Positions 9,001 to 60,114 of a stretch of DNA of 64,000 nucleotides are shown here, in pieces. The translations under genes were made by a program, and so were the position numbers. Each line of letters opens with the position of its first letter. Position 1 is the first letter of the stretch. This DNA comes from Chloroflexota bacterium (lineage in GTDB: Bacteria; Chloroflexota; Dormibacteria; Dormibacterales; Dormibacteraceae): contig VBHJ01000015.1 of NCBI GenBank assembly GCA_005887685.1, forward strand, positions 2,540 through 66,539. Reading direction: 5' to 3'. The notes under the pieces were generated by a model, which was not told the DNA's origin, ran no database searches, and saw nothing but the letters and a program-made list of their open reading frames with translations.

Positions 9001-12000
9001 TTACTCGGTCTTCGCCTCAGCCTCGACCATCTACATGACCAGCGTCGCCGGTGGCAGCTTCACCAGCTCGGTCACCGTCGCGCGCGACCCGAGCGCGTCC
9101 AGGGCCACGGTAAGCGGCACACCGCACCTGGGCTGGGTCGAGAAGATCTCACTTCTGCCGGCCGGATCGAACCCGGTTCAGACCGGCGACCGGTGGACCG
9201 TCTCAGTCAACGACGGCAGCCTCGGGTTCCTGGCAACTACGACCGCGTCGGCCAGCCAGTCGATCGCGGACATCGTCGCCGCCCTCGCGCCCCAGCTGTC
9301 GAACTTCAACGCTTCGGGGTCGACGGGAGACCTCGTCCTCTACGCGACCGACGGTTCGCCGCTCACGATCGCCCCGGTCACCCAGTTCCGGCCGAAGGCC
9401 GACCTGTTCAGTGCCGCCGACACGACCACGTTCACTGAAGACGTCCGGCCCCACTACTACAAGTCGGTGTTCACGCTCTTCGGCAACGACTCCACCGGAG
9501 GGTGGTCCGCGGGTGAGGTCTGGACGGTGACCGTCGACGGCAAGCCGTACACGTACACGGTGCCGTCGACCACCGCGCCTGCCGACCGCACCCTGCAGAC
9601 GATCGCCGCCGGGCTGGTCGCGGCGATCAATGCCACCACCGACCCGATCACCGCCTCAGTCGCGTCGAACAGCCCCACCATCACGATCGCCGACAAGGAC
9701 GTCGCGACCGGCGGCACCGATCCATTCGTCCAGGTGATCAAGCGCGGCGGCGGCCACGTCACGGGCGTCTTCAATGCGGCCGGCGTCGGCGACGTCAGCG
9801 GGAAGGTGGAGGTCTCGACCGTGCCTCCGCAGTACCAGTGGCTGATCAACCTGTTCCCGTTCTTCAGGTTCTACTTCGCCAACGACACGCTCTCCTTCAC
9901 CTCGGTGCCGGTGCTGCAGCTGCTCGACAGCAATGGCACGGTCCTGGCGACCAACGTATGTGCGCCGACCGGCACCACCTCGACCGGGCGCTACTGCTCC
10001 ACGAACGCCATCCCCGGACCCGGGTCTACGCCGGACCCAGTCCTCCGGTACACGTTCAACGCCCCGGGCATCTACCAGGTCCGGGTTGGCTCGCTGCGGA
10101 AGTGGAAGGACCAGACGGACACCCTGCACCTGGCCAACAACTTCCGGAGCGACACCCCGCTGAGCGACGTCCTCGCCGGAACCGTCCTGCCAGACCCGCT
10201 TGCCGCGGGCCTCGCCTACACGCTCCTCGTCTCGCTGCAGCGCCACGCGACCAACCCGAACGAGATCTCGCTCAAGAACCAGAGCATCCAGATCATCTCC
10301 GGCCCGGGCGCGGGGAAGACGGCCACGATCAAGGACTACGATCCCGAGACCGGGCTGTTCACGCTGGCCGCTCCCACGCTCAGCGTCCCTGGCTGGGTCC
10401 TGCCGGCAGGCACCACCGAGGCGCAGGCCAAGTCGATCAGGTACGAGATCTCCGAGCCCATCACGACGGCCTCGCCCGACTACACGCAGTCCACCGACAG
10501 CTATGGAGTCCTGCTGACGAGCCAGCCGGCGCAGAACGTGACGGTCAACGTCGTCCCGCAGGCGACCCCGACGTATGACTCCTCGCAGGTGTTCAACGCA
10601 TCAGCCAACTTCGGGCTGAACGACACCGTTCAGGTCCGTGTCAAGACGCCGCAGGCGACGTTCCGGTTCGGAGGCGTCCCGGGCGCGGGCGAGGTCTGGA
10701 GCGTGGTGCTCAATGACACGCCCATCTCCTACACGGTCGCAACGGGCGACACCCTGGCGATGGTGGTCTCCAAGCTGGCGGGCAAGGTGGGCGGGGCCTT
10801 CGTGGCGACCATCAACGCCGCCGACCCCTACACGCTGGTCGTGACGTCTGCGAGCGCCTTCTACTCGAGCTTCCAGATCACGGGCATCGGGCCGGCCGGG
10901 GATACCGGTGGCACAGGGACCATTACAGGCAGCGGCGCCGGCGCAGTCGTCACGCTCGCGGACACGGCCGCGGTCAACGAAGTGTGGAAGTTGACGGTGG
11001 ACGGCACCGACTACGCCTACACGCTGAAGTCCACCGATACAGTGCAGACCGCCGGCGCTGCGCTGGCTGCGCTGCCTCCCTCCGGCACCTACTCGTCGGT
11101 GTTCGACCTCACCACGAGCACGATCACGGTGAGCCGTGTCGACACGCGGACGGTGTCGGCCTCCTTCTCAGTGTCGACCGAAGGGGCGCCGAAAGCGAAG
11201 GTCGCCGCGAGCAGCATCACGGTCGGCCTTGGCGGCGCTCCGGCTCAAGACGAGACCTGGACCTTGACCCTCGACGGCGTCGCGTACCTGTACAAGGTCC
11301 AGTTCCGCGACGACCTGGCCACCATTGCCGGCAAGCTCGCGACTCAGCTGCCGCTCCCGACCTATGACGTGTCCCTCTCGGGTCGGGTGATCACGATCGG
11401 CCGCGTTGATGGAGCCGCCGCCGCGGCGACGTTCGCGATCTCGCCCGACAGCAAGGGTGGCGCCTCGGTCTCGCCGCAGCTGGTCTTCACTCCGAGCAAC
11501 TGGAGCACCACCCAGTGGGTGACGGTCCAGGCGGTGCCGAACAACCTGGTCGATGGGCACGACGCGCTGGTCTTCCCGCCGATGGACAACCGCGTGAACC
11601 AGATCCGCGGCCCGATCACGATCAACGGCGGCATCGGCCCGAACCCGGAGCCGTTCCTGAACAACCCGCTGATGCTGCCGGGCGAGAAGAACCTGCCGAT
11701 TCCGGATGGCACCGTCACGGGAGCTGGCACGAACGCAGAGCTGGCCTCGATCATCGACCTGTACGCCACCCACGTCAGCGCCCAGCACGGCGAACGCCCG
11801 GGCTTCGACCCGCGCATGAACGACTCCACGTTCTCGAACCAGTTCCTGAACGGGTTCTTCGCCGGGCAGTCGTTCGACGTCAGCTCGGTCTCCAAGGACA
11901 TCCTGTCCTTCGCGAACACGACGCCCTTCGCGGTGGGCTTGCTGAAGAACTCCGTCGCGGCGACGACGTCCGACGTCCAGTTCGTCGGCACGCCCGACCA

Positions 12001-15000
12001 GGCAACCGTGGGCACCATCGCGTGGTCGCAGGTCGCGATCGCGCTGACCGGCCTGGCCTCCAACGCAGAGGACTGGAAGCTGAGGCTGGACAGTGTCGAT
12101 TACGACGTCAACGTGGGCCCCGGCGGGGATGTCGCCTCGCACATCGCGCAGCTGCTCGCGGCCGCGCTTCCCTCGGTTTACCTGGTCGAGCTCAGGACCG
12201 GATTGCTCGGTGACGCCCGCATCCTGATCAAGGGCCGGACCGACGGTCTCCCGATCCACGTCAGCTTCACGATTACCGGCCCGAACACACCCGAGGGCAA
12301 GGCGATCATCACCGGCACTCCCGTCGCGCTGCCTAAGATCGCGGACGCCACCAAGTGGACGATGGGCGCCTACAGGTTCATCCAGGCACCGGTGGCGACT
12401 GACACGTGGACGCTGCAGGTGGCCGCCACCACCTCCATCTACCACGTCGTCGCCAAGGACGACATCTCGGTGCTCACGAGGAAGCTGGCCCAGGGCCTCA
12501 GCTCCGCCTTCGGCGCGCTGGTCTCGGGCAGCCAGATCACGCTCAAGGCTGTCTGGCCGCTGAACTCCAACGGCCAGCCCATCACGCCTGCCGTGGGCGA
12601 TCAGTACGCGCTGCAGCCGGTGAACCTGAACACGCGGGTCGATGAGTCGACCACTGTCGACACCCTCAACGTCTTCAACAACGGCAGCCCGGCGGCAGAA
12701 ACCGGCGTGCTGACCGAGAGCACCCTCACCGGCCTGGGCATGGGCGGCGACACGGTGATCGACGGCCAGACGGTTGCGGGCGGAATCACCTACCGCAACC
12801 TGGAGTCGCTCAACATCCACCTCGGCAGCGGCAACCAGATGTTCACGGTGAAGGGCACCCACGACGGCAGCACCGAAATCTCCGCCGGAAACGGCAGCAA
12901 CACCTTCAACGTCCTGACCCTCAACGGGCACACGACCATCGACACCGGCAGCAACACTCAAACAGTCGTGAATGTCGGCAACGCCGGTCTGATCGATCGC
13001 GTCGGCGGCCTGCTCACCATCGACACCGGCTCGGCCGGCGCCGGCACCGGCACGGTCAACGTGGACAACTCGGCTGAGACACGCGACACGCTCGCGACCC
13101 TCACCGGCTCCTCGCTGACCGGGCTCAACATGCCGACGATCGCGGAGGAGCAGACCATCCACCTGCGCGGCGGTGGCGGCTCCTACCAGCTCGACTCGGC
13201 AGACCTGGAAGCGCTGAACTCGCACCCGGTGACGCTCAACTACCTCGACAGCGCCGCCCAGCTGGAGGCCGAGCTCGAAGCTGCGTACCACCTGGCCGCG
13301 GGCGGCATCGAGGTCACCGAGCTGCGCACCAGCTCTGACGTCACGTACACGGTCAGCTTCGTCGGGGCCAACGCCGGCAGGCACTTCGACCAGCTGCAGT
13401 GGACCAGGAGCTGGACGTTCACGGCGCCGGCCGGCGACCCGATCACCGGCGCTTACAACGTCACGGTGCCCGGCCGCGGCACGGTGACGCTGCACGTCAC
13501 AGATGACGCGAGTGTGGTCCAGGCAGCGCTGAGTCAGCTCTATGGACTCGGCGGCATCAGCGCGCTGGACGTGAGCACCGGCGTCTACACCGTGGTCTTC
13601 AGCGGTCCGAGCCTCGTGCTCGACCTCGGCCAGCTGGCCGGAGCGGCGACACAGGTGGTCGCCCAGCTCCAGCCCAGCTCGGACGGATCGGCACGCGCCG
13701 AGACCGGGTTCGTGCGCGACGGCACGACGGCGCCCACCCGGAACACCGTGCAGACGATCACCGTCAATGCCAGTGGTGGCTCGTACGTCCTGCACTTCGT
13801 GCTGCCCAACACAAGCGGCGTGCTGCAGGACGTGGCGACCGGACCGATCGCCTACAACGCTTCTGCCGACGACCTGCTGTCCGCATTGAGCGCGGTCCTC
13901 AACCCGAACAACACGAACCCGTCGCTGCCCTGGACGTTCAACGTCGCGGTAGCTCAGCACGGCGGGACGTACTACGTCACCTTCCTCGGTCAGGACACGG
14001 CACAGCTGATCGCGTACATCGACACCAGCAAGCTGACCGGCAAAGCGACGGTGGCGACGCGCTTGAACGGCATCGACTACCGCGGCGTGGGGACCCTGAA
14101 CATCAAGCTCGGCTCGGGCACGGACGTCTTCAACGTCCAGGGCACCTCCGCGGTGACCAACCTCAGCACGGGCGCAGGCGATGACCGGGTCTACGTGTCG
14201 TCGACCGCGGGCGTCGGCACCACCCAGCACCCTGACTACCTGCCGGGCGCCCTCGCGAACATCGCCGGCACGCTGAACATCGACGCCGGCGGCGGGCGCC
14301 ACACGCTGATGGTGAGCGACGAAGGCTCGAGCACCGGTGACGCCAACGCCCTCATCACCAGGGACCCCCTGGCGGCGGCGGCCCGCGACCAGAACGTGGC
14401 CGCGAACGCTCAGATCTTCATGCTGGGATTTGCGAGGGCCGGCATCACATATCGGACCACCGGCAACTTCGCGGGCGGGCTGACCTTCTGGACCGGCTCG
14501 GGCAACGACAACATCACCGTCAATGCGACGCATTCAGCGGCCGGCGTGAACGAGATCACAATGCTGAACACCGGTCTCGGAAGCGACAACGTCACGGTCA
14601 ACCTGCTCAGTGGCCTGGACGGCCCGTTCGTGCTCAACACGCAGGGGGCGTACTACAACCTGCTTCAGCTGTCGACGCCGCTCTTCACCGGTGACTACAA
14701 CGCTGCCCCTGACGTGGTCGGCGTCACGGTGAACGGATTCGCGCAGGTCGGTGAGCAGTTCCTGGTCAACCCGTTGCTCAGCGCCGCGGCGCTGACCTAC
14801 AACCCAACCGCGGGTTTGGTGGCCGTCGTCTCGATCCTCAGGTCGATCGTCGAGGCCTCCGTCTTCGACGGGTCGGGCAATGTGAAGCTCGCCACGACCC
14901 TGCAGTCAGGCGACGTCGTGAGCGCGACGGTGAACGGCGTGCCGGTCGGCGCCGTTGACCTGACGCAGCCCGACACGCACACGATCAACATCAGGCCGAC

Positions 15001-18000
15001 GGCGCAGCGACCCGCCGGCGCACTGGTGCTGGTCACGATCGTCCACAAGATCACGCAGTCGTTCACTCTGCCGCAGCTTGGAACGAGCGGCGGTCTGAAT
15101 GACAGCGACGTCGTCAACGCTCAGGGCTCGACGCTCCCGCTTGTGATCTTCGGCGGCGAGGGCAACAACTCCATCACCGGTGGCAGCGGCGGCGACATCA
15201 TCCTCGGCCACCGCGGGCTGGTGCTATACGGCGCCTCCACCGAGGCGCAGGCCGGTGTCGTGCTCGGGCATGGCGGTCCGGGCGACCGGAATGACGCCAT
15301 CGTCCACCCGCTGGGCCTTGTCATCAGCGTCGACCCGACGATCGGCGGCAGCAACACGATCACCGACGGCAACGGTGGGAACGTGATCCTCGCCGGCTCC
15401 GGCAACGACCTGGTCCGGACCGGCTCCGGCGATGACATCGTGTTGGGTGACAACGCCAGGCTCATGTACCAGAACGGCGTGCTGAGCCAGATCACGACCA
15501 TCTTCGACAACATCGGCGGCAACGACACCATCTACGGCGGCGGCGGAGCCGACCTGCTCGTGGGCGGGCCCGGCAACAACGCCATCGACGGCGGCTCCGG
15601 CAGCGATGTCATCGTGGCGGACAACACCGCGCTTGACCGGTTGCCTGGCGTGGCTGTCAATCCGCGGTTCCGCAAGCTGGTGGGCGGCCTGATCTACGAC
15701 CTCACCACCGGGGCCGACCAGGTCACCGCGGCTGCGCAGCCCGACCCGGCGTGGGGCACGACGCCGCCCTGGTGGGCGTTCTTCCAGGTCACCCTCCTCG
15801 ACTCGCTCACCACCGCCACGTCCGGGTACTACGGCAGCAACTACATCGCGGGCGGCGCGGGCGACAAGATGATCTTCGGCGGCTACGGGAACGACGTGAT
15901 CCAGGGCCACTCGTCGATCGACTACCGGCCGCCAACGCCGATCTCACTCACGTGCGCCAACCAGGGCTCGGTGGGCGCTCAGGGCTGGAGCTGGGCCGGC
16001 CTCATCGGAGCGTGCCGCCCGGCGAGCACCAACCCGACCGTGCCGACCACGCTGCTGCTGGTCAACCCGTCGAAGGGCGACCTCGCCGGCGCCGGCACCG
16101 ACGGCTCCTCCTACATCGAAGGCGGCGGCGGCAACGACGTCATCTTCGGCGACTTCGGCCAGAACGACATCGTGGGCGGCAGCTCCGACCTGTTCGGGCT
16201 GACGACGCCGGCGCAGCGCGCCCACACGGGCTCGAGCCTGATATTCGGCGGCGACGGTACGCAGATCGCCCGCGGATACCCGGGTCCGGACTGCGTCGTC
16301 ACTCCGCAGTGCCACGCGGCCAACTCAGAGGTCATCGCGGCCGACAACGCCGACATCTTCCGGCTGGTCGGCGCCAGCGGCGTGTACCTGCGCTTCAACT
16401 ACGACAACTACACCGACGCCCTGCCGGCCGTGCAGCAGGCGCACATCATTCCTCGCGCCGTGCGGCTGCTCGACTACACGCCGGGCGGCCCGGACCTGGC
16501 CGGCCAGGCCGGTCCGATGGTCACGGGAGACATCGGCGGCGCGGCTGAGATCCACGCCGAGTCGGGCGACGCCTTCGTCTACGGCGGGCCTGGCGCCGAT
16601 GTGATCTTCGGTGGCAGCGGAAACGACACGATCATCGGTGGCTACGGCAACAACTGGATCTCCGGCGGCACGGGCCAGAACTGCATCATCGGCACCGACG
16701 GCCGCTGCTACGCCAGCCGCGTCAGCGCCACGGTCGGCGAGCCGCTGTACGCCGTCACGCCGGTGGCTGCGGTCAGCCAGCTGATCTCGCTCCAGGGCGG
16801 CATGCAGCAGGCCGACATCAACGTGAACGGCGCGCTGAAGTACACCGCCCTCGTCTACCCCGACGTCCTCGACCCCACCGGCGCGGCGAGCCCGACGTTC
16901 CGCGGCAAGTGGACCAACAACATCATCTACGGCGGTTTCGGCTCCGACGCCATTCACGCAGGTCCCGGCGAGAGCGCGGTGACCGGAGCCATCGCGCCTC
17001 GGCTCGCGTACACGAACAACTACGATTTCGCCGGCAACAAGCTGAACGCGAAGCCGATCGAGAGCGACTGGTATCACCCGTACAACCCGGGCAACGCCCT
17101 GGGCTACAACCCGGCGACGACCAAGTTCGCCCTGTATGACGCGGCTGACCCACGCCGCAAGATCCTCCTCACCTCAACCGGCTTGCTCGACAAGACCGGG
17201 ACTGGTGTGCTGTGGATCCTCGACTTCGACCCGACCGAGGGCCCTTTGAACAAGTACTGGAGCAACGGAACGGCCTTTGCGCCGAGCCCGACGCAGGGCA
17301 ATGACGCGATCTTCGGCGACATGGGCAACAAGTGGATCGTGGGCGGCCCTGGCCGGAACCGCGTGTACGGCGGCTGGGGCGACGACATGATCGACATCCG
17401 CGGCACGCTCGACCAGAACGGCGGCCTCAACGACGGGACGGTGGCCAACCCGTCCACGGAGAGCCTCGCCTACGGCGGCGCTGGAATCGATGTGTTGATC
17501 GCCAGCTCGGCCGGCGATCGCCTGATCGACTGGGGCGGCAACCTCGGTGGCACGTACCTGGTTCCGTTCTCGCCGTTCGGCGAGCCGACGGTCAGCCGCA
17601 CGCCATCTCCTGGCATGCAGAACTTCCTGCTCCAGCTCGGCCAGAGCGACGGTGCCGACATGACCATGGGTACGCGGCACGGCGGCACAACCGCTCGCAA
17701 CGGGGAGCCGTTCGGTGAGCTCGCCATGATCATTCCTGGGGATGCCGCCTGGGGTGCGCAGCATGGCGCGCCGCGTGACCCGATGGTGCACGGCACGGGC
17801 GGCCGCGACACGAACCGCACCAACGCGGTCAAGCCGATCGAATCGCCGGGCACGCTGGCGTTCATCGACCCGCCCGCAGTGGCCGGTGGGGCGCCGGTGG
17901 GTGGTTCGGTGCTCGCGAGCGTCGGCGCCGCCGCGGCGAGCGCGGCACCGACGGTGGTGACAGGTGCGCCAGGGTCGGTCGCGACGATCACGTACACGGA

Positions 18001-19483
18001 CGGCACCCACACTGTGACCGCGAACGGAATCATCGACGCCAACGGACAGCTTGTCGTCACCGCCAACCTTTCCAGCCTCGCGGACGGCACGGTGACGGCG
18101 AGCATCGTGTTGAACTCGACGTCTGTGACCAGCGCCAGCCTGTTGAAGGACACCTCGGCCCCAGGCGCGCCCCTGGTCGGAATGCCGGCGTATGTGGGTA
18201 GAGCCGGAGTCAGCACCGTGCTGCTGGTCATCAACGGCGAGCCCTGGACCACGGTCGACTACACCCTGTCGGACGGCACCACATGGGCATCCGATGAGAT
18301 GGTCATCGATGACACCGGCAGAGCCACAGCGGTCCTTGACCTCTCCAACTTCGTGGACGGGCCGATCGCGACCACGGTGACGGTCATGGACGTCAATGGA
18401 AACAACAGCGTTTACGGCCAGGCGACCACGACCAAGATCACGGTCGTGCCGGCCGCGCCGGTGAGCGTCGGGCTGGACTCGCGCGACGACTCCGGGATCG
18501 CGAGCACTGACAACCTCACCAACGTGCGTTCGCCGCGCTTTGTCGTCACCGGGCCCGGCACGCCGACCGTGTACCTCAACGGCGCGCTGTACACCGGCCA
18601 GGCCCTGGCGGACGGTCTCTACTCGATGAAGGCGACGCTGACGGACCTGGCGGGCAACGTGTCGCTTGCCACCACCGCGGTACAGCAGGTGCGCATCGAC
18701 ACGTCGGCGCCGGCGGGCACGATCTCCCTCGCCGGAACCCTGATCAATGGTCAGCTCGCGACCAAGAACCCGGTGATAGCGATCACGCTCGCCGTGACTG
18801 ACTCGGGCACCGGCGTCAGCCAGATCGCAATCTCGACCAACGGCGGCACGACCTACGGCGCACCGTTTGCGTACGGCGCCAAGGCGTCCGTCACGCTGAC
18901 GGCCGATGGTCTGTACACGATCGCCGTGAAGGTCACCGACATTGCAGGCAACGCCGCGGTGGCCATGCTTCCGATCCGGCTCGACACGACCGCGCCGGTC
19001 ATCACAGCGTCGCTGCCGGCGCCAACCAACGGAACCTTCTACGACGTGGGCAAGAAGATCACGCTCACCTACGGCGCGGCCGATGTCGACAATGCGACCA
19101 CGACCGTGGTGCTCGACGGTAAGACAACGATCGTCGGTGGGGTCATCGACATCGACACGCTGACCGCGGGGACGCACACGATCGTCGTTGCGGCGACCGA
19201 CGGACTGGGCAACACGACCTCGAAGACCATCACGTTCACGATCCACGCCACGATCAACGGGCTGATCAACGCCGTCAACGACGGCGCAGCCCGAGGCTTG
19301 ATCACAGCCGCTGAACAGGCAAACCTGGTCTGGTACCTCCAGAAGGCCCTGACGGGCAGTGCGAAGGCGCGAATCGGCCAGTTCAACTGGGAGGCGAACT
19401 ACCAGAGCGGCAAGGCGATCAACGCCGCTGAAGCGGCGCTGCTGCTGAGCTGGGGCAACGACCTGTACGCCCGGACGCCGTAA
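2..19483 (+). CDS. 3' portion (at least 6,486 codons) of a giant secreted/cell-surface multi-repeat protein; the frame is open to the left window edge, so the true start lies upstream
   Basis: The frame is uninterrupted from nt 2 to TAA 19481-19483, and the GTG at 23 is only the first in-window start. The product is rich in Thr/Gly/Ala/Val and has sparse cysteines that occur in close pairs (e.g. [47 protein letters not shown]), as in disulfide-bonded extracellular proteins. Domain content is listed in the sub-features below. Confidence 0.92.
   Translation, partial: [6493 protein letters not shown]
335..830 (+). other. CBM/galactose-binding-like jelly-roll segment of the giant protein
   Basis: [27 protein letters not shown] ... 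[11 protein letters not shown] ... [23 protein letters not shown] ... YYIRNVVLQ. This is the NGxFE/W pattern typical of CBM4_9-like modules. The assignment rests on motif resemblance only. Confidence 0.35.
2455..4540 (+). repeat. Degenerate GGxGxD-type beta-helix/beta-roll segment
   Basis: Recurrent [57 protein letters not shown] and [14 protein letters not shown]. Shorter related segments recur near 12650-13140 and 14040-14640 (L[TS]GL.M ... Y.NLE.LNI.LG.G...F.V). Confidence 0.4.
6400..6855 (+). other. PPC (pre-peptidase C-terminal)-like beta-sandwich domain
   Basis: [15 protein letters not shown] ... [10 protein letters not shown] ... [12 protein letters not shown], the DYYxF / YYLxV / YxLxVS pattern of PPC-type domains. 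Confidence 0.4.
7150..9830 (+). repeat. Nine tandem, highly diverged ~90-110-aa modules (G-[DE]-x-W-x-[LV]-x-[LV] ... IAxxLA signature), family not recognised
   Basis: Signature Trp codons read at about 7201, 7528, 7819, 8088, (Phe variant 8360), 8632, 8891, 9194 and 9521. Examples are [71 protein letters not shown] and [40 protein letters not shown]. Confidence 0.7.
9915..10250 (+). other. Second PPC-like domain
   Basis: [16 protein letters not shown] ... [17 protein letters not shown] ... [12 protein letters not shown]. Confidence 0.35.
10650..11470 (+). repeat. Three further copies of the W-x-L-x-V / IAxxLA module
   Basis: [103 protein letters not shown]. Confidence 0.65.
12030..12600 (+). 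repeat. Two further copies of the same module
   Basis: [69 protein letters not shown]. An isolated copy lies at about 5700-5950 ([34 protein letters not shown]). Confidence 0.6.
13140..14040 (+). repeat. Three copies of a second module type (GGSYxLxF ... ASAxxLxxALxxL ... YxVxFxG)
   Basis: [14 protein letters not shown]...[20 protein letters not shown]...[49 protein letters not shown]...[28 protein letters not shown]...[20 protein letters not shown]...[11 protein letters not shown]. Confidence 0.45.
15150..17540 (+). repeat. RTX / hemolysin-type calcium-binding nonapeptide (GGxGxDxUx) block with interspersed inserts
   Basis: [124 protein letters not shown]. Confidence 0.7.
17955..19250 (+). 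other. Run of bacterial Ig-like domains, followed (19250-19480) by a short helical C-terminal domain
   Basis: [28 protein letters not shown] (the DxGxSxTDxxTN motif of adhesin Ig-like domains); [16 protein letters not shown] and [15 protein letters not shown] (DTxAP boundaries). The C-terminus [19 protein letters not shown]...[20 protein letters not shown] is helical and FIMAH-like, at low confidence. Confidence 0.55.
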
Positions 19484-19493
19484 TCTCCGCGGT

Positions 19494-19967
19494 ATGGAGA
19501 CTCCCGGGCCGGTCTACATATCTAAGGTAAGGATCGTCCGCGAGCGTGGGCCCATCCGCGAGGCCTACCTTCCCGTCGAGTCGCAGCCGATCATCTTCGG
19601 CACGCACGGTGCGGTGCGCGAGCACTACGGCACCGCTCCCGGCCAGTACCCGGACCACGCGACGACCCTTGATTACGTAGTCGCGGCAGCGGCCGGTTGA
19701 CTCACCGGCACACTGGGTGGCGCGCTGGAAGCGCGCGGGATCGACGCAAGCGAGGGCCGGCTGACGTCAGAGGCCGAGGGCGAGATCTATCTGGTCGACA
19801 AGGTCCTCGTGATCAAGAAGATCCACGTCCACTACACGCTGAGGGGTTGCCCAGACGACAAGCGCGAGGCCGCGGAGAGATCGCGCGCCTTCCACGCCTC
19901 GCGATGCCCGGTGGCAAAGAGCATCGAGAAAGCGATCGAGATCTCAACCGACCTCGCGTTCGAGTGA
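19494..19967 (+). CDS. OsmC/Ohr-family peroxiredoxin with in-frame TGA (19698-19700) at the peroxidatic Cys position: candidate selenoprotein (alternative: Cys-to-stop pseudogene)
   Basis: The track ORF 19494..19700 ends ...TLDYVVAAAAG-TGA. The same frame continues LTGTLGGALEARGIDASEGRL...VLVIKKIHVHYTL...AFHASRCPVAKSIEKAIEISTDLAFE to TGA 19965-19967. Together this gives 157 codons, a normal OsmC length, with the second conserved Cys (RCPV) retained. Confidence 0.6.
19720..19736 (+). promoter_or_regulatory. Candidate SECIS-like hairpin downstream of the in-frame UGA
   Basis: GCGCGC-UGGAA-GCGCGC: a perfect 6-bp stem with a 5-nt G-containing loop that starts 20 nt after the UGA. No extended lower stem is obvious by eye. 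Confidence 0.3.
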
Positions 19968-20939
19968 CACCGACGGCGTACGCGACCACAGCGTCACCCC
20001 GAGGCGGACGTTGCGGAACACCTCCTCGCTGACGAGAAACCCGACGAAGATCAGCAGCAAGCCGAGGAACTCGCCGAGGAAGAAGGACCACGTGACGCCA
20101 AAGCGATTGAGGCTGCTGGTGACGCCCGGGATCAGGGCGCCCAGGGCGATGAGGATGGTGGCCGGCACCCGCGAGTTGAGCTTTCCGGCGAGGAGCGCCG
20201 CCCCAGCTCCCGGCAGCGACGCGAAGAAGTTGACCGCTATCGCGATCACTCCCAACCGAGCCGCCACCGCGCGCTTCTTGGGCATGTAGATGTACGCGGA
20301 GTAGAGCGCCCCGAACACAAGGGCCAGACCGCCGCCCGCGTTGAACGGCACGCTGGTGACACGAAGGTAGCCGGGAAAAGCGGCGGCCACCGGCACATGA
20401 GTGGCGGGGTCGACGTAGCTCCCCAAAACGTGTGCGCTGATCACGAGCACCGCCACGGCAAGCGTGCCTGAGGCGAGGAACGCCATCGCGACGTGCGCCT
20501 GGAGGTCGCGCCGCACGGCGGTCGCGATGGCGACCGCGGCGGCCGCCAGCAGCGCCAGGCCCAGGGTGATGTATCCGGCTGTTGCTGAACCCGGATACCT
20601 GGAGGTCGCCGCGAGGGAGAAAAGACCGCCAAGCGCGACCGAGAATGCCACGAAGTAGCCAAATCGAGTCTTGCCGAGGAGGTACAGCGTGCCGGCCCCG
20701 AGATACGCCGGGACGAAGAAGGCGCCGATCAGGTACCACGCGCGATAGACCGGCTCGCTCCAGCCGAACGCCCCGCCTATGAACTCGGCCCCGGCGCTGA
20801 TGCCGTACCAGATCAGGCCGATCGCCCACACCAGTTGAAAGGCGTGGCGCCGCTGCCACCACTGGTCCAGCACCATCGCCGCGAAGACGAAGCTCAGCAC
20901 CGAAGAGGCCAGCGGAAGCAAGACGTTCAGGTTCTGCAT
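19944..20939 (-). CDS. Polytopic integral membrane protein, function unknown
   Basis: A 331-aa ORF with roughly 9-10 hydrophobic segments and no motif I recognise. It is convergent with the extended OsmC gene and overlaps it by 24 nt. Confidence 0.65.
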   Translation of the reverse strand: MQNLNVLLPLASSVLSFVFAAMVLDQWWQRRHAFQLVWAIGLIWYGISAGAEFIGGAFGWSEPVYRAWYLIGAFFVPAYLGAGTLYLLGKTRFGYFVAFSVALGGLFSLAATSRYPGSATAGYITLGLALLAAAAVAIATAVRRDLQAHVAMAFLASGTLAVAVLVISAHVLGSYVDPATHVPVAAAFPGYLRVTSVPFNAGGGLALVFGALYSAYIYMPKKRAVAARLGVIAIAVNFFASLPGAGAALLAGKLNSRVPATILIALGALIPGVTSSLNRFGVTWSFFLGEFLGLLLIFVGFLVSEEVFRNVRLGVTLWSRTPSVSLEREVG

Positions 20940-20962: not shown

Positions 20963-21394
20963 TCAGGCAAAAAAGACCGTCTCGCCCTCGCCCTGCAGCC
21001 GGACGTCGAAATGGAGCACGTCGCCCTCCTGCCTTGCGACCAGAGTGGGCCGGCGCTCTGCGTCGATCGATGCGAGCACCACATCTTCCACGCCTGGAAA
21101 GTAGATCCGCGTGTTGAGATGCCTCAGCAGCCCGCGGGCAAAGACGACGAGGTTGAGGTAGCCGGCTTCCGGTTTGCGCACGGAGAAGTGAAAGACGCCT
21201 TCATCGTCGGTGCGACATCGCCCGAACTGGTCTTCCTGCGAAATCTCCAGCAAGGCGTCCCCCACTGGTTTCCCCGCACCGTCCAGGACCTGTCCCTCGA
21301 TGCGCACGCCATCGGGTGCGCAAATCGAATCGTCCTCGAAAGGAAGCGCGAATCCGAAGAACGGCCCGGCGGTTTGCGACGGCGTCGGGACCAT
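20963..21394 (-). CDS. pcaG: Protocatechuate 3,4-dioxygenase alpha subunit
   Basis: MVPTPSQTAGPFFGFALPF..., VFARGLLRHLNTRIYFPG. ATG 21394-21392 overlaps the pcaH stop (TGATG). The longer track ORF to 21460 was rejected. Confidence 0.85.
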   Translation of the reverse strand: MVPTPSQTAGPFFGFALPFEDDSICAPDGVRIEGQVLDGAGKPVGDALLEISQEDQFGRCRTDDEGVFHFSVRKPEAGYLNLVVFARGLLRHLNTRIYFPGVEDVVLASIDAERRPTLVARQEGDVLHFDVRLQGEGETVFFA

Positions 21395-22077
21395 CAGCTC
21401 TCGGCGGGCGTGGCGTTGCGGCCGCGAAGGACGATGTCCCACCTGTAGCCCAGCGCCCATTCCGGGACCGTCGCGTCAATGTCAAAGTGGGCCGTCAGCA
21501 GATCGCGGCCTCGCGGATCGGGGATCGAGCTGATGATGGGGTCGAGCGGGATCAGCGGATCGCCCGGGAAATACATCTGCGTCACGAGCCGGCTCGCGAG
21601 CGACGGTCCGAAAAGAGAGAAGTGGACGTGCGCCGGGCGCCAGGCGTTGGCGTGGTTGCGCCACGGATAAGCCCCCGGTTTGACCGTCACGAATCCATAG
21701 CGCCCTTCTTCATCGGTCAGGCATCTCCCCGCCCCGGTGAAGTTGGGGTCGAGGGGTGCCGGATGATCGTCGACCGGGTCGACGTAACGCCCAGCCGCGT
21801 TGGCCTGCCAGACCTCGACCAGCGTGTTGCGGACCGGCCGGCCGTCGGAATCCAGCACCCGCCCGTTGATCACGATCCGCTCGCCCAGAGGCTCGCCCCG
21901 ATGCTGCCGGGTCAGATCGGCGTCTCCGGGTCGGACTGGAATGCGCCCGAAGACCGGGCCCGGCGCACGATGAAACCACTCGTCGGGCAGCCTCACCGGA
22001 CTGTGGCGGGGCGCACGCAGCTCCGTGGAGCGGTAGTCCGGATAGAGGTAAGGAGGTTCGTATTCGAGCTGGGACAC
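21394..22077 (-). CDS. pcaH: Protocatechuate 3,4-dioxygenase beta subunit
   Basis: PDYRSTELRAPRH, LVEVWQANAAGRY, WRPAHVHFSLFG, QMYFPGDPL. These are classic intradiol dioxygenase beta-chain motifs. Confidence 0.9.
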   Translation of the reverse strand: MSQLEYEPPYLYPDYRSTELRAPRHSPVRLPDEWFHRAPGPVFGRIPVRPGDADLTRQHRGEPLGERIVINGRVLDSDGRPVRNTLVEVWQANAAGRYVDPVDDHPAPLDPNFTGAGRCLTDEEGRYGFVTVKPGAYPWRNHANAWRPAHVHFSLFGPSLASRLVTQMYFPGDPLIPLDPIISSIPDPRGRDLLTAHFDIDATVPEWALGYRWDIVLRGRNATPAES

Positions 22078-22171
22078 GACCCTTGACGGGCATTATGAAC
22101 TGGCTCAAACTCCGATCGTCGGTACACGGAGCAATCGCCTCTTGCCGGCCTGAACAGGGGAGGAAATTCAG

Positions 22172-23485
22172 GTGTCACTCACGCGCCGAGAAATGCTCAA
22201 AGGCACGGGTCTTGTCCTGGGTGGGTTGGCGGTCCCCGGCGTCCTCGAATCGTGCCTTACCTCGACGTCGTCAACGTCTTCGGGCACGATCAAGATCGGC
22301 TACATCAGCCCGATTACGGGCCCGGCGTCAGGGTTCGGCGAACCCGACGCCTATGCGATCAGCCTGGCTCGCAAAGCCCTCAAAGACGGGCTCTCGATCG
22401 GAGGCACCAACTACTCGGTGGAGATCGTCAATCGGGACGGCCAGTCGACGCCGTCCGTCGGTTCGCAGCAGGCGAACGACCTGATCTCGAGCCAGAAGGT
22501 GGACCTGATGCTCACCACCTCGACGCCTGAGACCGTGAACCCGGTTTCGGATGCATGCGAGGCGGCCGGCGTCCCGTGCATCTCGACTGTCGTCCCGTGG
22601 GAGGCATGGTTCCTCGGTCGCGGCGGCAAGCCCGGGCAGCCCTCGCCCTTCAAGTCCACGTTCCACTACTGCTTCGGCGTGGAGCAGTTCTTTCTCGCCT
22701 ACACGCACCTGTGGCCGCAGGTCCCGACCAACAACAAGGTCGGTGTGATGTATCCGAATGACGCCGATGGCAATGCCATCAGGGCAGTGCTCGCGCCGCT
22801 GCTCAAGACCGCCGGTTACACGATCGTCGACCCGGGTCCCTACGAGGACGGCACCAACGACTACACGACGCAGATTCAGAAATTCATCGCCCAGGACTGC
22901 CAGATCTTCAACACGTTCCCGATCCCACCGGACTTCGCCACGTTCTGGCGGCAGGCTTCCTCGCTGGGTTACACCAAGCACGTGAAGATCGGCCAGATCG
23001 CGAAGACCGGGCTGTTCCCATCCCAGGTGAGCTCGCTCGGCTCCATCGGCAACGGCCTGGCCTCCGGCGTCTACTGGGCGCCGACCTGGCCCTACAAGTC
23101 GTCCCTGACGGGCGTGACCAGCAAGCAGCTCGGCGACGGTTATGAGTCCTCGACCGGCAAGCAGTGGAACCAGCAGCTCGGAGCAAGCCTGTCGCTGTTC
23201 GACGTCGCCGCAGCGGTGCTGAAAGCGAGTGGCAATCCAAAGGACAAGTCAAAAGTCATCGGCGCGATGGCAACGCTGACAGTCGAGACCCCTGTGGGAA
23301 AGCTCGACTGGTCGAAGCCGGTCTCGCTGGCCGGCATGGCGGTGCCCAACGTGGTCAGCACTCCGATCATCGGCGGCCAGTGGAAGGAAGGCGTCTCGAA
23401 GTGGCCCATCGATTTCGTGATCTGCGAGAACGCGGCCGACCCCAACGTGCCGATTGCATCGACCCTGAAGCCCTACACCGGATAG
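22172..23485 (+). CDS. ABC transporter substrate-binding protein, LivJ/Peripla_BP_6 type, Tat-signal lipoprotein-like
   Basis: N-terminus MSLTRREMLKGTGLVLGGLAVPGVLESC (Tat-like RR motif plus Cys). GGGGAGGAA RBS upstream of GTG 22172. It is followed by four matching ABC genes. Confidence 0.85.
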   Translation: MSLTRREMLKGTGLVLGGLAVPGVLESCLTSTSSTSSGTIKIGYISPITGPASGFGEPDAYAISLARKALKDGLSIGGTNYSVEIVNRDGQSTPSVGSQQANDLISSQKVDLMLTTSTPETVNPVSDACEAAGVPCISTVVPWEAWFLGRGGKPGQPSPFKSTFHYCFGVEQFFLAYTHLWPQVPTNNKVGVMYPNDADGNAIRAVLAPLLKTAGYTIVDPGPYEDGTNDYTTQIQKFIAQDCQIFNTFPIPPDFATFWRQASSLGYTKHVKIGQIAKTGLFPSQVSSLGSIGNGLASGVYWAPTWPYKSSLTGVTSKQLGDGYESSTGKQWNQQLGASLSLFDVAAAVLKASGNPKDKSKVIGAMATLTVETPVGKLDWSKPVSLAGMAVPNVVSTPIIGGQWKEGVSKWPIDFVICENAADPNVPIASTLKPYTG

Positions 23486-23495
23486 GACAGTCGGG

Positions 23496-24230
23496 ATGGA
23501 GGCGAGAACTGAATCTGTTCTCGCCGCGGTCGACGTGCGCAAGCGCTTCGGCGCGCTTGCGGTGCTGGATGGGGTCACCCTCGCCCTGAGGCCTGCCGAG
23601 GCTGTTGGGATCGTCGGTCCCAACGGCGCGGGCAAGACGACGCTGCTCAGCGTGCTCGCCGGCTCGCTCGCGCCCGACAGCGGCAGCATCGTGTTTCAGT
23701 CGCGCGACGTCACGTCCAAAGGCGCGGCCGACCGCTGCAAGCTCGGCATCGCGCGCACCCACCAGGTCCCGCGGCCGTTTGCCGGGATGACGGTGTTCGA
23801 GAACGTCCTGGTCGGCGCGACAGCCGGCGGCCGCCGCCGCGGCGGCGAGGCGTACGACCTCTGCCTCGAGGTGCTCGATCAGACCGCGCTGACGCCGCTT
23901 GCCAACCGGCGCGCGGAAGGGCTTGGCCTCATGCAGCGCAAGCGCCTCGAGCTGGCGCGCGCGCTGTCGGTCGAGCCCGCTGTGCTCCTTCTCGATGAGA
24001 TCGGTGGTGGGCTCACCGACGCCGAGTCCGCCGCCCTGGTCGAGACCGTGGCAAGCCTCCGCGACCGCGGCATAGCGGTGCTGTGGATCGAGCACATCGT
24101 CCACGTACTCATGCAAGTCGTCGCGCGCCTGGTGTGCATGGACGCCGGCCGGATCATCGCGGAGGGAAAGCCGGACGAGGTGGTGTCCCAGGCCGCGGTG
24201 ATCGATGCCTACCTCGGAGGCGGCGCATGA
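23496..24230 (+). CDS. Branched-chain-amino-acid-type ABC transporter ATP-binding protein (LivG-like)
   Basis: Walker A GPNGAGKTT, Walker B LLLDE, and the LivG-type C-terminal extension. Confidence 0.9.
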   Translation: MEARTESVLAAVDVRKRFGALAVLDGVTLALRPAEAVGIVGPNGAGKTTLLSVLAGSLAPDSGSIVFQSRDVTSKGAADRCKLGIARTHQVPRPFAGMTVFENVLVGATAGGRRRGGEAYDLCLEVLDQTALTPLANRRAEGLGLMQRKRLELARALSVEPAVLLLDEIGGGLTDAESAALVETVASLRDRGIAVLWIEHIVHVLMQVVARLVCMDAGRIIAEGKPDEVVSQAAVIDAYLGGGA

Positions 24231-24937
24231 CGCTGCTCAAGGTCGAGGCGCTCGACTGTCGCTACGGGTTGCTCCAGGCGGTCCGTGGCGTTTCCTTCGA
24301 GGTCGCGGCAGGCGAGACCGTCGCGCTTATCGGGGCCAACGGCGCGGGCAAGACGACGCTTCTGAGAGCTGTCGCCGGCGCGCACCGTCCGCACGGCGGA
24401 CGTGTCGTGTTCGACGGAGTTGACATCACGACGCTGCCCGCCCACCGCCGCGTCGCGCTGGGGATTGCCCTGGTGCCGGAGGGTCGGCGCCTTTTTCCGA
24501 GCCTCACGGTCGAGGAGAACCTCCGGGTTGCCGCCTCACCCCGAAGGCATGGCCGCTGGAACATGGAAACGGTGCTCGAGGTGTTTCCCCTCCTGCGGGC
24601 GCGGCGCCACACCGCCGCAGCCAAGCTTTCAGGGGGCGAACAGCAGGCCGTGGCGATCGGGCGTGCCCTTATGAGCAACCCGCAACTCCTCCTGCTCGAT
24701 GAGGTTTCGCTCGGGCTCGCGCCTGTCGTCGTGGAGGCGGTCTACCGCGCCCTCGCGGGAATCCTCAACGAAGGCGCGACGGTGCTGCTGGTCGAACAGG
24801 ACCTGACCCGGGCGCTGGGGGTCGCGGGCCGCGTGGTCTGCATGCTCGAGGGCCGCGTGGTGCTGGAAGGACCCGCGCGAGCGCTGGACCGCGACCGCGT
24901 GGTCAGCGCGTACTTCGGCCTGCGGAGACCCGCATGA
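24227..24937 (+). CDS. Branched-chain-amino-acid-type ABC transporter ATP-binding protein (LivF-like)
   Basis: MTLLKVEALDCRYG, GANGAGKTT, LSGGEQQ, LLLDE. ATG 24227 overlaps the upstream stop (ATGA). Confidence 0.9.
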   Translation: MTLLKVEALDCRYGLLQAVRGVSFEVAAGETVALIGANGAGKTTLLRAVAGAHRPHGGRVVFDGVDITTLPAHRRVALGIALVPEGRRLFPSLTVEENLRVAASPRRHGRWNMETVLEVFPLLRARRHTAAAKLSGGEQQAVAIGRALMSNPQLLLLDEVSLGLAPVVVEAVYRALAGILNEGATVLLVEQDLTRALGVAGRVVCMLEGRVVLEGPARALDRDRVVSAYFGLRRPA

Positions 24938-25839
24938 CGCTGCTCAATGCCGCCTTGCAGGGGATTTTCCTCGGCGCCTTCTACGCCGTGCTCGCTTGCG
25001 GGCTTTCGATCATGTTCGGGGTGATGCGGATCATCAACCTTGCGCACGGAGACATCGCCGTCTTCGGCGCGTACGTGATGTTCGTGATCGTCGAACACAC
25101 CGGCGTCTCGGCGTTCATCGCCTTTGCGGCGGCGCTGCCGGTCATGGTCGTACTCGGCTACGTGCTGCAGCTCACCGTGCTGGAGCGAAGCCTCAAGTCC
25201 GGCATCCTGACGCCCCTCCTCGCGACGTTCGGGCTGTCGATCGTGATCCAGAACCTCCTCCAGCTGGCGTTTTCCCCTGACGTGCGCTCGCTGGGCGGCA
25301 GCGCGGGGGCGGTAACGACCGGGAGCTGGCAGGTCACGAGCGGCCTCTCCGTCTCGGCGCTGGGCCTCGTCGTACTGGTGGTTGCGGTGCTCGTTTTCGG
25401 CGCGCTGCAGTTGTTTCTTTCCAGGACCCGCATGGGATGGATGATGCGAGCGACGGCCGAGGATGCCGACGCCGCCGAGCTCGTCGGTATCGACAGCCGT
25501 GGCGTCTACGCGTGGGCAACCGCCTTCGCGGTCGCGATCGCCGCACTGGGCGGACTCTTCCTGGCGATCCGTTCGGTGTTCGACCCCGTCAGCGGACCGA
25601 CCCAGCTCATCTTCGCCTTCGAAGCGGTCGTGATCGGTGGCATGGGATCGCTTTGGGGCACGCTCGTGGGCGGCATTGCGCTGGGCGTTGCCCAGACGCT
25701 CGGCGCTCAAATCCACCCGCAGTTCGCGGTCATGGCCGGCCACCTCCTGTTCCTGGTGGTGCTCATCGCCAGGTACGGCGGTGGCCGCGACTTCCTGCCG
25801 CGCGCGCGCAGGCTGCTCCTGGCCAGGGCCGGGAGATGA
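24934..25839 (+). CDS. LIV-type ABC transporter permease (LivH-like)
   Basis: A 301-aa hydrophobic protein with an ATGA overlap to LivF-like; BPD_transp_2-like. Confidence 0.85.
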   Translation: MTLLNAALQGIFLGAFYAVLACGLSIMFGVMRIINLAHGDIAVFGAYVMFVIVEHTGVSAFIAFAAALPVMVVLGYVLQLTVLERSLKSGILTPLLATFGLSIVIQNLLQLAFSPDVRSLGGSAGAVTTGSWQVTSGLSVSALGLVVLVVAVLVFGALQLFLSRTRMGWMMRATAEDADAAELVGIDSRGVYAWATAFAVAIAALGGLFLAIRSVFDPVSGPTQLIFAFEAVVIGGMGSLWGTLVGGIALGVAQTLGAQIHPQFAVMAGHLLFLVVLIARYGGGRDFLPRARRLLLARAGR

Positions 25840-26834
25840 AGGTCGCGCGCTGGACGCGGACGTCGAAGCTCTTCACCGGCGGCGCCGCCGCGCTCGCCGT
25901 CACCCTTGCCTGCGTACCTCTGGTCTTCGAATCGGACGTGGTGCAGAAGCTCACCACGCTCTTGATCCTGGTCCTGCTGGCGGCGATGTGGAACGCACTC
26001 GCCGGCTACGGTGGCCTCCTGTCGGTGGGGCAGCAGGCTTTCATCGGGATCGGAGCCTATGGAACCGTCTTCTTCGCCGACCTGGGCGTGGCTCCTTACG
26101 TCGCGATGCTACTGGCCACGCTGCTGGCCGGCGCGATCGCGCTCCCCATCTCGCTCTTCGCGCTGCGGCTCCGCGCTGCTCAGTTCGCGATCGGGATGTG
26201 GGTCATCGCCGAGGTCATCTCGCTCATCGTTCGTCTGGACCAGAACCTCGGCGCCGGTACCGGCATCTCTCTCATCCAGCTGAACCAGTACGAGCCCAAC
26301 TTCCGCCAGGCGTACACGTTCTGGCTCGCCCTGGGCTTCACCGTCGTCTTCCTGGCCGCGCTCTTCTTTCTGCTGCGCTCGCCCCTGGGCGCGTCTCTGC
26401 AGGCGATCCGTGACGATGAGGACGCGGCCCGCTCGCTGGGTGTCCGCGTCGCGGCACGCAAGCGCCTGCTGTTCGTCCTGGCGGGCTTCGGCTGCGGAGC
26501 CGCGGGTGTTCTTGTCGTGGCCAACACGCTTTTCATCGAGCCGGGATCGGTCTTCAGCGTGCAATGGTCGGCGTACATGATCTTCATGGTCCTGGTGGGC
26601 GGTCTGGGCACCTTCGAGGGTCCGATCGTCGGCGCGATCCTGCTCTTCGCGATACAGACGACTTTCACGCAGGGCGGCCCGTGGTACCTCGTGGGCCTCG
26701 GCGCGACCGCGGCGCTCTTCGCGCTCGCACTGCCTCGCGGCTTGTGGGGGACGGTCGAGGAACGGCTTGGGCTGCGTTTGCTGCCGGTGGGTTATCGAGT
26801 GGTGGAGGCAAAGGGTGAAGAACGGGCGGCGTGA
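25836..26834 (+). CDS. LIV-type ABC transporter permease (LivM-like)
   Basis: MKVARWTRTSKLFTGGAAALAV... starts at ATG 25836, which overlaps the LivH stop (ATGA). The Arg-rich N-terminal extension of the 25437 ORF was rejected. Confidence 0.85.
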   Translation: MKVARWTRTSKLFTGGAAALAVTLACVPLVFESDVVQKLTTLLILVLLAAMWNALAGYGGLLSVGQQAFIGIGAYGTVFFADLGVAPYVAMLLATLLAGAIALPISLFALRLRAAQFAIGMWVIAEVISLIVRLDQNLGAGTGISLIQLNQYEPNFRQAYTFWLALGFTVVFLAALFFLLRSPLGASLQAIRDDEDAARSLGVRVAARKRLLFVLAGFGCGAAGVLVVANTLFIEPGSVFSVQWSAYMIFMVLVGGLGTFEGPIVGAILLFAIQTTFTQGGPWYLVGLGATAALFALALPRGLWGTVEERLGLRLLPVGYRVVEAKGEERAA

Positions 26835-48778: not shown

Positions 48779-48855
48779 CGGGGAGTAGCGCAGCCCGGTA
48801 GCGCACTTGACTGGGGGTCAAGTGGTCGCGGGTTCAAATCCCGCCTCCCCGACCA
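48779..48855 (+). tRNA. tRNA-Pro (anticodon GGG), CCA encoded
   Basis: Folded by hand: acceptor CGGGGAG/CTCCCCG, D-stem GCGC/GCGC, anticodon stem CTTGA/TCAAG with loop CTGGGGG (GGG, G37), T-arm GCGGG-TTCAAAT-CCCGC, discriminator A, CCA. Confidence 0.95.
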
Positions 48856-60108: not shown

Positions 60109-60114
60109 ACCACA

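Follow-up and report, generated by a model that had tools for sequence, protein, structure and literature searches.

A complete OsmC-type gene with a conserved in-frame UGA, very probably a selenocysteine codon, in a Dormibacteraceae contig

Introduction

In Ohr and OsmC proteins the first of the two conserved cysteines is peroxidatic and the second is resolving. In the stretch of DNA analyzed here (64,000 nucleotides of a Dormibacteraceae contig, hereafter the window), an open reading frame that begins with the ATG at position 19494 is interrupted by a TGA at 19698-19700, directly after the residues ...TLDYVVAAAAG, where a protein of this superfamily would be expected to carry the first of these cysteines. 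The locus therefore raises the question of whether it represents a decayed gene, two adjacent genes, or a single functional gene in which UGA is decoded and, in the latter case, as which amino acid. A previous reading of the window from its letters alone (the sequence-only reading) had proposed it as a candidate selenoprotein with UGA at the peroxidatic cysteine.

The OsmC-like protein was added to the recognized prokaryotic selenoprotein families by the Sargasso Sea study of 2005, where it was described within COG1765, with the motif UxxT and a predicted bacterial SECIS element, the latter being a stem-loop that lies directly 3' of the UGA and has a G in its small apical loop (PMC1088965). 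The UxxT motif is also given in PMC13188914, and OsmC-like protein is listed as a selenoprotein family in reviews from 2022 and 2026. The statement in the sequence-only reading that such proteins had been reported from metagenomic surveys only was thus too cautious, as the family is better established and a curated NCBI model for it exists (NF041052). No paper on selenocysteine in Dormibacter was found in a literature search.

Results and discussion

The reading frame and its product

When reading was continued past the internal TGA, the frame remained open until the TGA at 19965-19967, as had been claimed. The ATG at 19494 and this terminal codon delimit a complete gene of 157 codons (19494..19967, + strand), predicted to encode an OsmC-type selenoprotein, in which the TGA at codon 69 (19698..19700, +) is the sole in-frame interruption and would specify selenocysteine (U69) at the first, peroxidatic Cys position of OsmC/Ohr. 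With Cys replacing the stop, the joined product matched the Pfam OsmC family PF02566 over residues 57-152 with 46 bits (E 7e-12), the curated cut-off of this family being 27.5 bits.

The second conserved cysteine, anticipated about 69 residues further on within RCPV, was found at codon 138 (TGC, 19905..19907, +), 69 residues after the UGA, and is the putative resolving cysteine. The corresponding CP[VIAL] motif was kept in 159 of 159 complete relatives, and C136 was invariant in alignment A5. An extra cysteine, Cys119 (TGC, 19848..19850, +), lies within RGCPDD; according to alignment A1 it is shared by the window protein and by P0002-4, P0040, P0050, P0073 and P0076 (at least 59% identical), and is absent in more distant Sec and Cys forms.

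Sequence searches against the PDB gave weak matches, to OsmC 1ukk and, with a profile, to OhrB 2bjo (E 7e-4). In the OhrB and OsmC alignments the first catalytic cysteine was matched by the UGA column and the second by Cys138, and alignment with the OsmC of T. thermophilus paired AGC with AGC and CPV with CPV. For structural comparison an AlphaFold2 model of a Cys form, P0012 (60% identical to the window protein), was used, with a pLDDT of 96. Foldseek matched this model to OsmC, Ohr and OsmC-like structures with TM values of 0.6-0.83 over approximately 150 columns, at 8-23% identity (TM 0.67-0.83 for 2onf, 1ukk, 1qwi and 1usp), and since it superposes over that length, the N-terminal 55 residues belong to the fold as well. 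The PF02566 match and the full-length match of the P0012 model together agree with the earlier statement that the joined product is a complete OsmC/Ohr fold. Helix 57-79 of the model is the central helix and spans the UGA junction.

Compared with the Cys-based Ohr and OsmC reductases (2bjo OhrB; 1ukk and 1qwi OsmC; TIGR03561 and TIGR03562), the window protein would thus share the fold and keep both catalytic positions (U69 and Cys138) at the low identity given above, while the peroxidatic position, occupied by sulfur in those enzymes, is predicted to hold selenium. Family models did not place the protein within any of the named subfamilies: it scored 18.9 bits against OsmC TIGR03562 (cut-off 85.8) and gave no hit with Ohr TIGR03561 (cut-off 88.85), for which two relatives reached 14.1-15.7 bits. 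Relatives scored at most 30.8 bits on TIGR03561 and TIGR03562, and the cut-offs of the OsmC, Ohr and SACOL1771 models were all unreached. By analogy with the superfamily, we infer that the window protein would act as a peroxide-detoxifying hydroperoxide reductase.

Conservation of the UGA codon among relatives

A protein search yielded 120 related proteins, and the DNA of relatives was fetched as 80 loci from species-representative genomes plus 80 metagenome contigs, the latter deliberately seeded with Cys forms. The codon at the column was TGA in all 160 fetched relatives (161 of 161 when the window is included), and TAA or TAG in none, and the frame continued past it for roughly 88-93 codons. 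Together the relatives carried at least 10 phylum-level labels; those of the 80 species-representative loci included Dormibacterota, Acidobacteriota/Bryobacterales, Methylomirabilota, Desulfobacterales, Acidimicrobiia, Nitrospiraceae, Binatia and Thermoleophilia.

Some of the labels were odd. Five contigs with genes 78-91% identical to that of the window (L002, L007, L008, L014 and L029) belong to MAGs whose labels include Sulfotelmatobacter, Acidoferrum, a Micrarchaeaceae archaeon and Eisenbacteria, and three of them (L002, L007 and L008) also have the neighboring membrane-protein gene. These labels are probably binning or labelling errors and not the true hosts.

A non-standard genetic code in which TGA is a sense codon was also considered and was ruled out, because TGA serves as an ordinary stop in the window more often than any other codon, closing 20 of the 39 ORFs selected by GC3.

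A constrained hairpin downstream of the UGA

A short hairpin, GCGCGC-UGGAA-GCGCGC (19720..19736, +), starts 19 nt after the UGA, inside the codons for G-A-L-E-A-R. Its stem pairs 19720-19726 with 19730-19736 (7 bp) around the apical loop GGA (19727-19729). The sequence-only reading had pointed to a perfect GC hairpin at 19720-19736, in the range of bacterial SECIS elements; its position proved exact, and the hairpin was near-invariant among 147 distinct sequences.

In the window sequence taken singly, the hairpin folds with -12.9 kcal/mol and a z of -2.3 for 25 nt, while the wider context (48-73 nt) gives a z of -1.2, unremarkable in sequence of 67% GC. The significance of the element comes therefore from the comparison, that is, from the TGA kept in 160 of 160 relatives and the near-invariance in the 147 sequences, and not from the lone sequence. 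The comparison set consisted of 147 distinct sequences, each comprising the TGA and the 66 nt that follow it. Standard pairs occupied 99.6% of the 1029 pair cells, the closing pair being G-C in 86 sequences and G-U in 59, and the loop-proximal pair U-G in 105 and U-A in 42; shifting the 3' arm by 1-3 columns lowered pairing to 20-71%. As the stem is almost invariant, two-sided covariation is confined to one sequence (L145), in which a C-G pair has become A-U by a double change, at the price of an Arg-to-Leu replacement.

The constraint was also evident in codon usage. The six codons that encode the hairpin were nearly fixed (Gly +7, GGC in 140/147; Ala +8, GCG in 147/147; Leu +9, CTG in 147/147; Glu +10, GAR in 144/147; Ala +11, GCG in 146/147; Arg +12, CGY in 145/147), whereas other Gly, Ala, Leu and Thr codons nearby vary, as exemplified by Ala +16 (GCC 45, GCG 42, GCA 31 and GCT 24). 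The Gs of the loop (columns 30-31) were invariant, the first of them occupying the synonymous third position of CTG (Leu +9). In the RNAalifold consensus of the 147 sequences the 7-bp hairpin was the only helix kept. A long lower stem, which pairs the UGA with a downstream UCA in the single-sequence fold, was absent from this consensus and was dropped as a candidate.

These comparative data indicate that the hairpin is constrained as RNA. Very probably it is a minimal SECIS element, to which SelB would bind. Like bacterial SECIS elements of the E. coli fdhF type and the bSECISearch consensus, it sits in coding sequence just 3' of the UGA, and its upper stem is rich in GC and capped by a small apical loop in which G is conserved; the distance from UGA to loop, 26 nt, fits the range of 16-37 nt published for the bSECISearch model. 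It differs from them in being very short (7 bp and a 3-nt loop, or 6 bp and 5 nt) and in having neither a bulged U nor a conserved lower stem, and its overlap with a conserved peptide makes it nearly invariant from phylum to phylum. In Rfam searches, neither a SECIS nor any other family of relevance was detected in the window at the gathering threshold, or in 19400-20100 under permissive settings (E up to 10), a null result that is weak evidence, given that bacterial SECIS elements are short and diverse.

The only other near-match to the hairpin in the window, with 1 mismatch, lies at 4808-4824 on the - strand (GCGCGCTGCAGGCGCGC), antisense in a giant ORF. It has no associated in-frame UGA and is probably a chance resemblance.

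Cysteine forms and other variants at the column

Among the 120 related proteins, 24 had Cys at the column, 36 were recorded with 'W', 37 ended exactly at ...AAAAG, and many others began with (M/L)TGTLGGALEAR. Cysteine was present in P0012, P0029, P0053, P0092, P0095 and P0113, and P0012, P0029 and P0113 read GGC-LTGT at the column. These forms and the alignment with T. thermophilus OsmC agree with the proposal that the UGA occupies the first conserved Cys of the family.

At the DNA level, L161-L169 carry TGT or TGC at the column. The closest Cys forms, L161 (TGT, 3001-3474) and L162 (TGC, 1001-1474), keep an intact hairpin, GGC GCG CTG GAG GCG CGY, which resembles the remnant of a SECIS that has outlasted a recent exchange of Sec for Cys. 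Among the distant Cys forms, GALEAR is encoded by L165 and L169 and GALEAL by L167, with codons such as GCA, GCT, CTC and GGT and without the hairpin, and the more divergent Cys form L163 (GMLGAL) is also without it. Peroxidatic Sec, close Cys forms with the hairpin (L161 and L162) and distant Cys forms without it constitute a natural experiment, useful for the study of Sec-to-Cys replacement and of the minimal requirements of bacterial SECIS elements.

The supposition that every public 'W' at the column is a TGA translated under genetic code 4 holds in part only. Of three such proteins checked in DNA, P0024 and P0019 were TGA read as Trp, and P0002 (L170) had a true TGG. In L170 (331-798) the stem is damaged by a GCG-to-GGG change. 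In L171 (501-968; P0004, recorded with 'L') the codon is TTA (Leu) and the hairpin is intact. Each of the two is a single contig, one base away from TGA. Either non-Sec, non-Cys variants exist, then, or these are sequencing errors; the two contigs may be sequencing errors or inactive variants.

Alternative readings of the UGA

The alternative that survives best is that the UGA is recoded without selenium, by hairpin-stimulated near-cognate read-through (with Trp, Cys or Arg/Gly) or by some other SelB-independent recoding. Genes of the Sec machinery were indeed not found in the sequence at hand: ARAGORN detected no tRNA-Sec in either the 64-kb window or the related loci (934 kb), Pfam revealed no selA, selB or selD among the approximately 39 ORFs of the window, and motif scans of the 934 kb of related loci gave no SelA, SelD or SelB. 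When the window was scanned for in-frame TGA codons flanked on each side by coding-like GC3, this site and antisense artefacts were the only returns, and no second selenoprotein candidate emerged. A UGA followed by C is a weak termination context, and the nucleotide after the UGA was C in 144 of the 147 distinct sequences; moreover, L170 has a genuine TGG at the column. Against this alternative, the column is that of the catalytic Cys of a redox family, Cys is the only repeated alternative to it (24/120 proteins), and Trp at the peroxidatic position would abolish chemistry of the OsmC/Ohr type. The hairpin, furthermore, has the features of a bacterial SECIS, with a small apical loop containing G, and in the TGG relative it is damaged, as expected once Sec decoding is lost. 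Recoding without selenium is therefore considered improbable, and the residue at codon 69 is very probably Sec and not another amino acid.

A second alternative would divide the locus into two genes, a 68-aa N-terminal peptide and an independently translated 88-aa C-terminal OsmC fragment, maybe as a split fold. Public C-terminal fragments that start with M/L-TGTLGG (P0050, P0073, P0076, P0083, P0090 and P0103) would be in line with it. The codon right after the UGA, however, was CTG, CTC or CTT in 141 of the 147 distinct sequences, and CTC or CTT in 67 of them; given that CTC and CTT are non-start codons, a split gene with restart is excluded. Neither a conserved alternative start nor a conserved ribosome-binding site was present, and the central helix 57-79 of a single-domain fold crosses the junction. 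A real stop would, in addition, drift among TGA, TAG and TAA like the terminal stops of the same genes, which were mixed (TGA 71, TAG 46, TAA 42). This arrangement is accordingly very unlikely.

Least credible of all is a pseudogene, in which a decaying OsmC gene would have acquired TGA from TGC or TGT by nonsense mutation, or else a sequencing error in the window. A lone in-frame stop in a single sequence would by default be taken as the mark of a pseudogene, and pipelines annotate the relatives as 86-98-aa fragments, but the comparative data refute this reading, as the same TGA is present in 160 of 160 relatives from many phyla, the frame stays open for 85-98 codons after it in nearly all of them with no further disruption, the second Cys is kept in 159 of 159, and the dN/dS of the window gene against approximately 30 close relatives lies at 0.03-0.33 on either side of the TGA. 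Taken jointly, a split gene or a pseudogene has only a slight probability.

We conclude, with high confidence, that 19494-19967 is one functional gene of the OsmC/Ohr superfamily whose codon 69, UGA, is decoded as selenocysteine. The conservation of the TGA, the Cys column and the constraint on the hairpin all support the candidate selenoprotein put forward by the sequence-only reading.

Proposed mechanism

Under selenocysteine decoding, the 17-nt GC hairpin located 19 nt 3' of the UGA would act as the SelB-binding SECIS minihelix, and its G-rich apical loop would keep the SelB-GTP-Sec-tRNA(Sec) complex at the ribosome as the UGA enters the A site, so that Sec would be inserted in place of termination by RF2. 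In the mature enzyme the selenolate of U69 would attack the peroxide in the style of Ohr/OsmC hydroperoxide reductases, Cys138 would resolve the resulting selenenic acid to a selenenylsulfide, and a thiol reductant would regenerate the enzyme.

Relationship to known OsmC-like selenoproteins

The predicted protein has much in common with the OsmC-like family of the Sargasso Sea and GOS datasets (NF041052): both are bacterial PF02566 proteins with an in-frame UGA at the redox Cys position, both have Cys homologues, and in both a stem-loop with G in a small apical loop lies downstream. They differ in motif, which is UxxT in the Sargasso family and U-L-T-G-T, with Gly at +3, in the window protein, and in provenance, the former family being from marine plankton and the window clade from soil-type lineages (Dormibacterota, Acidobacteriota and others). 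Against the NF041052 model, named 'OsmC-related (seleno)protein', the window protein scored 12.7 bits (cut-off 95), and its Sec and Cys relatives scored 14.7-25.1 bits or gave no hit. Being outside NF041052 by score and motif, the window protein would work like the known OsmC-like selenoproteins but is not a member of that curated family. The window clade looks like a separate Sec-bearing OsmC clade, set apart from the marine family by model score and published motif.

Whether this amounts to a second, undescribed Sec-bearing OsmC clade, in which Sec is the rule (160 nearest relatives, including the Cys-seeded set) and a minimal SECIS within a conserved peptide segment has stayed essentially unchanged across more than 10 phyla, is in our judgment an evenly balanced proposition. 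If true, it would mean that Dormibacterota and many uncultured soil lineages run Sec machinery, and that public databases contain hundreds of these genes as fragments. The gene itself is indirect evidence for the use of selenocysteine in Dormibacterota and in further soil phyla that are poorly known. The general picture of selenoprotein function is unchanged, and Sec at a peroxidatic Cys will not surprise a specialist; what is worth recording is the breadth of the clade, the systematic mis-annotation and the frozen putative minimal SECIS.

Annotation of the gene in public databases

The statement that automatic annotation truncates the gene held among the relatives, whose public proteins end at ...AAAAG or start with (M/L)TGTLGG. 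When the C-terminal half was searched against 1.84 billion cluster representatives, 301 clusters were retrieved at E up to 1e-3, and many of them were fragments of 60-120 aa starting right after the UGA. The gene and hundreds of its relatives are public as fragments of 68-98 aa or as calls with TGA read as Trp, all of which would be put right together if the clade were given a name, for instance through a dedicated HMM.

In several metagenome clusters among the relatives (P0064-P0066, P0068, P0070 and P0072), the reading frame of a GNAT acetyltransferase domain continues into the N-terminal half of OsmC and ends at ...AAAAG. The six named proteins may be either true GNAT-OsmC fusions or two abutting genes without an intervening stop.

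Genomic neighborhood

Around the gene lie those for protocatechuate dioxygenase subunits, a periplasmic binding protein and a membrane protein of 331 aa. These neighbors were syntenic and 63-92% identical in MAGs that bear the label Candidatus Dormibacterota or 'Chloroflexi bacterium CF_*', so that a Dormibacterota genome is the most likely source of the window. The gene for the 331-aa protein, a multi-pass membrane protein with no Pfam hit (19944-20939, - strand), is convergent with the OsmC gene, with an overlap of 24 nt at the 3' end of the latter, and the two were likewise paired in the 13 loci nearest to the window, at 63-89% identity. The membrane-protein gene is followed by genes similar to those for the alpha and beta subunits of protocatechuate 3,4-dioxygenase and then by a branched-chain-type ABC transporter with a binding protein, two ATPases and two permeases (20963-26834).

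On the other side, a giant ORF of 6486 aa (23-19483, + strand), which may start beyond the window, ends 10 nt before the OsmC start codon. Its Pfam hits were C-terminal only (RTX calcium-binding repeats and Big_13), with none in the first 3000 aa, and ORFs in the equivalent position of L001, L009 and L027 shared 36-46% identity with its last 500 aa. Further along, the window encodes a large helicase of the Lhr type (43892-48259), its only tRNA, tRNA-Pro GGG (48779-48855), and a polyphosphate kinase followed by a CYTH-CHAD protein (57997-61623).
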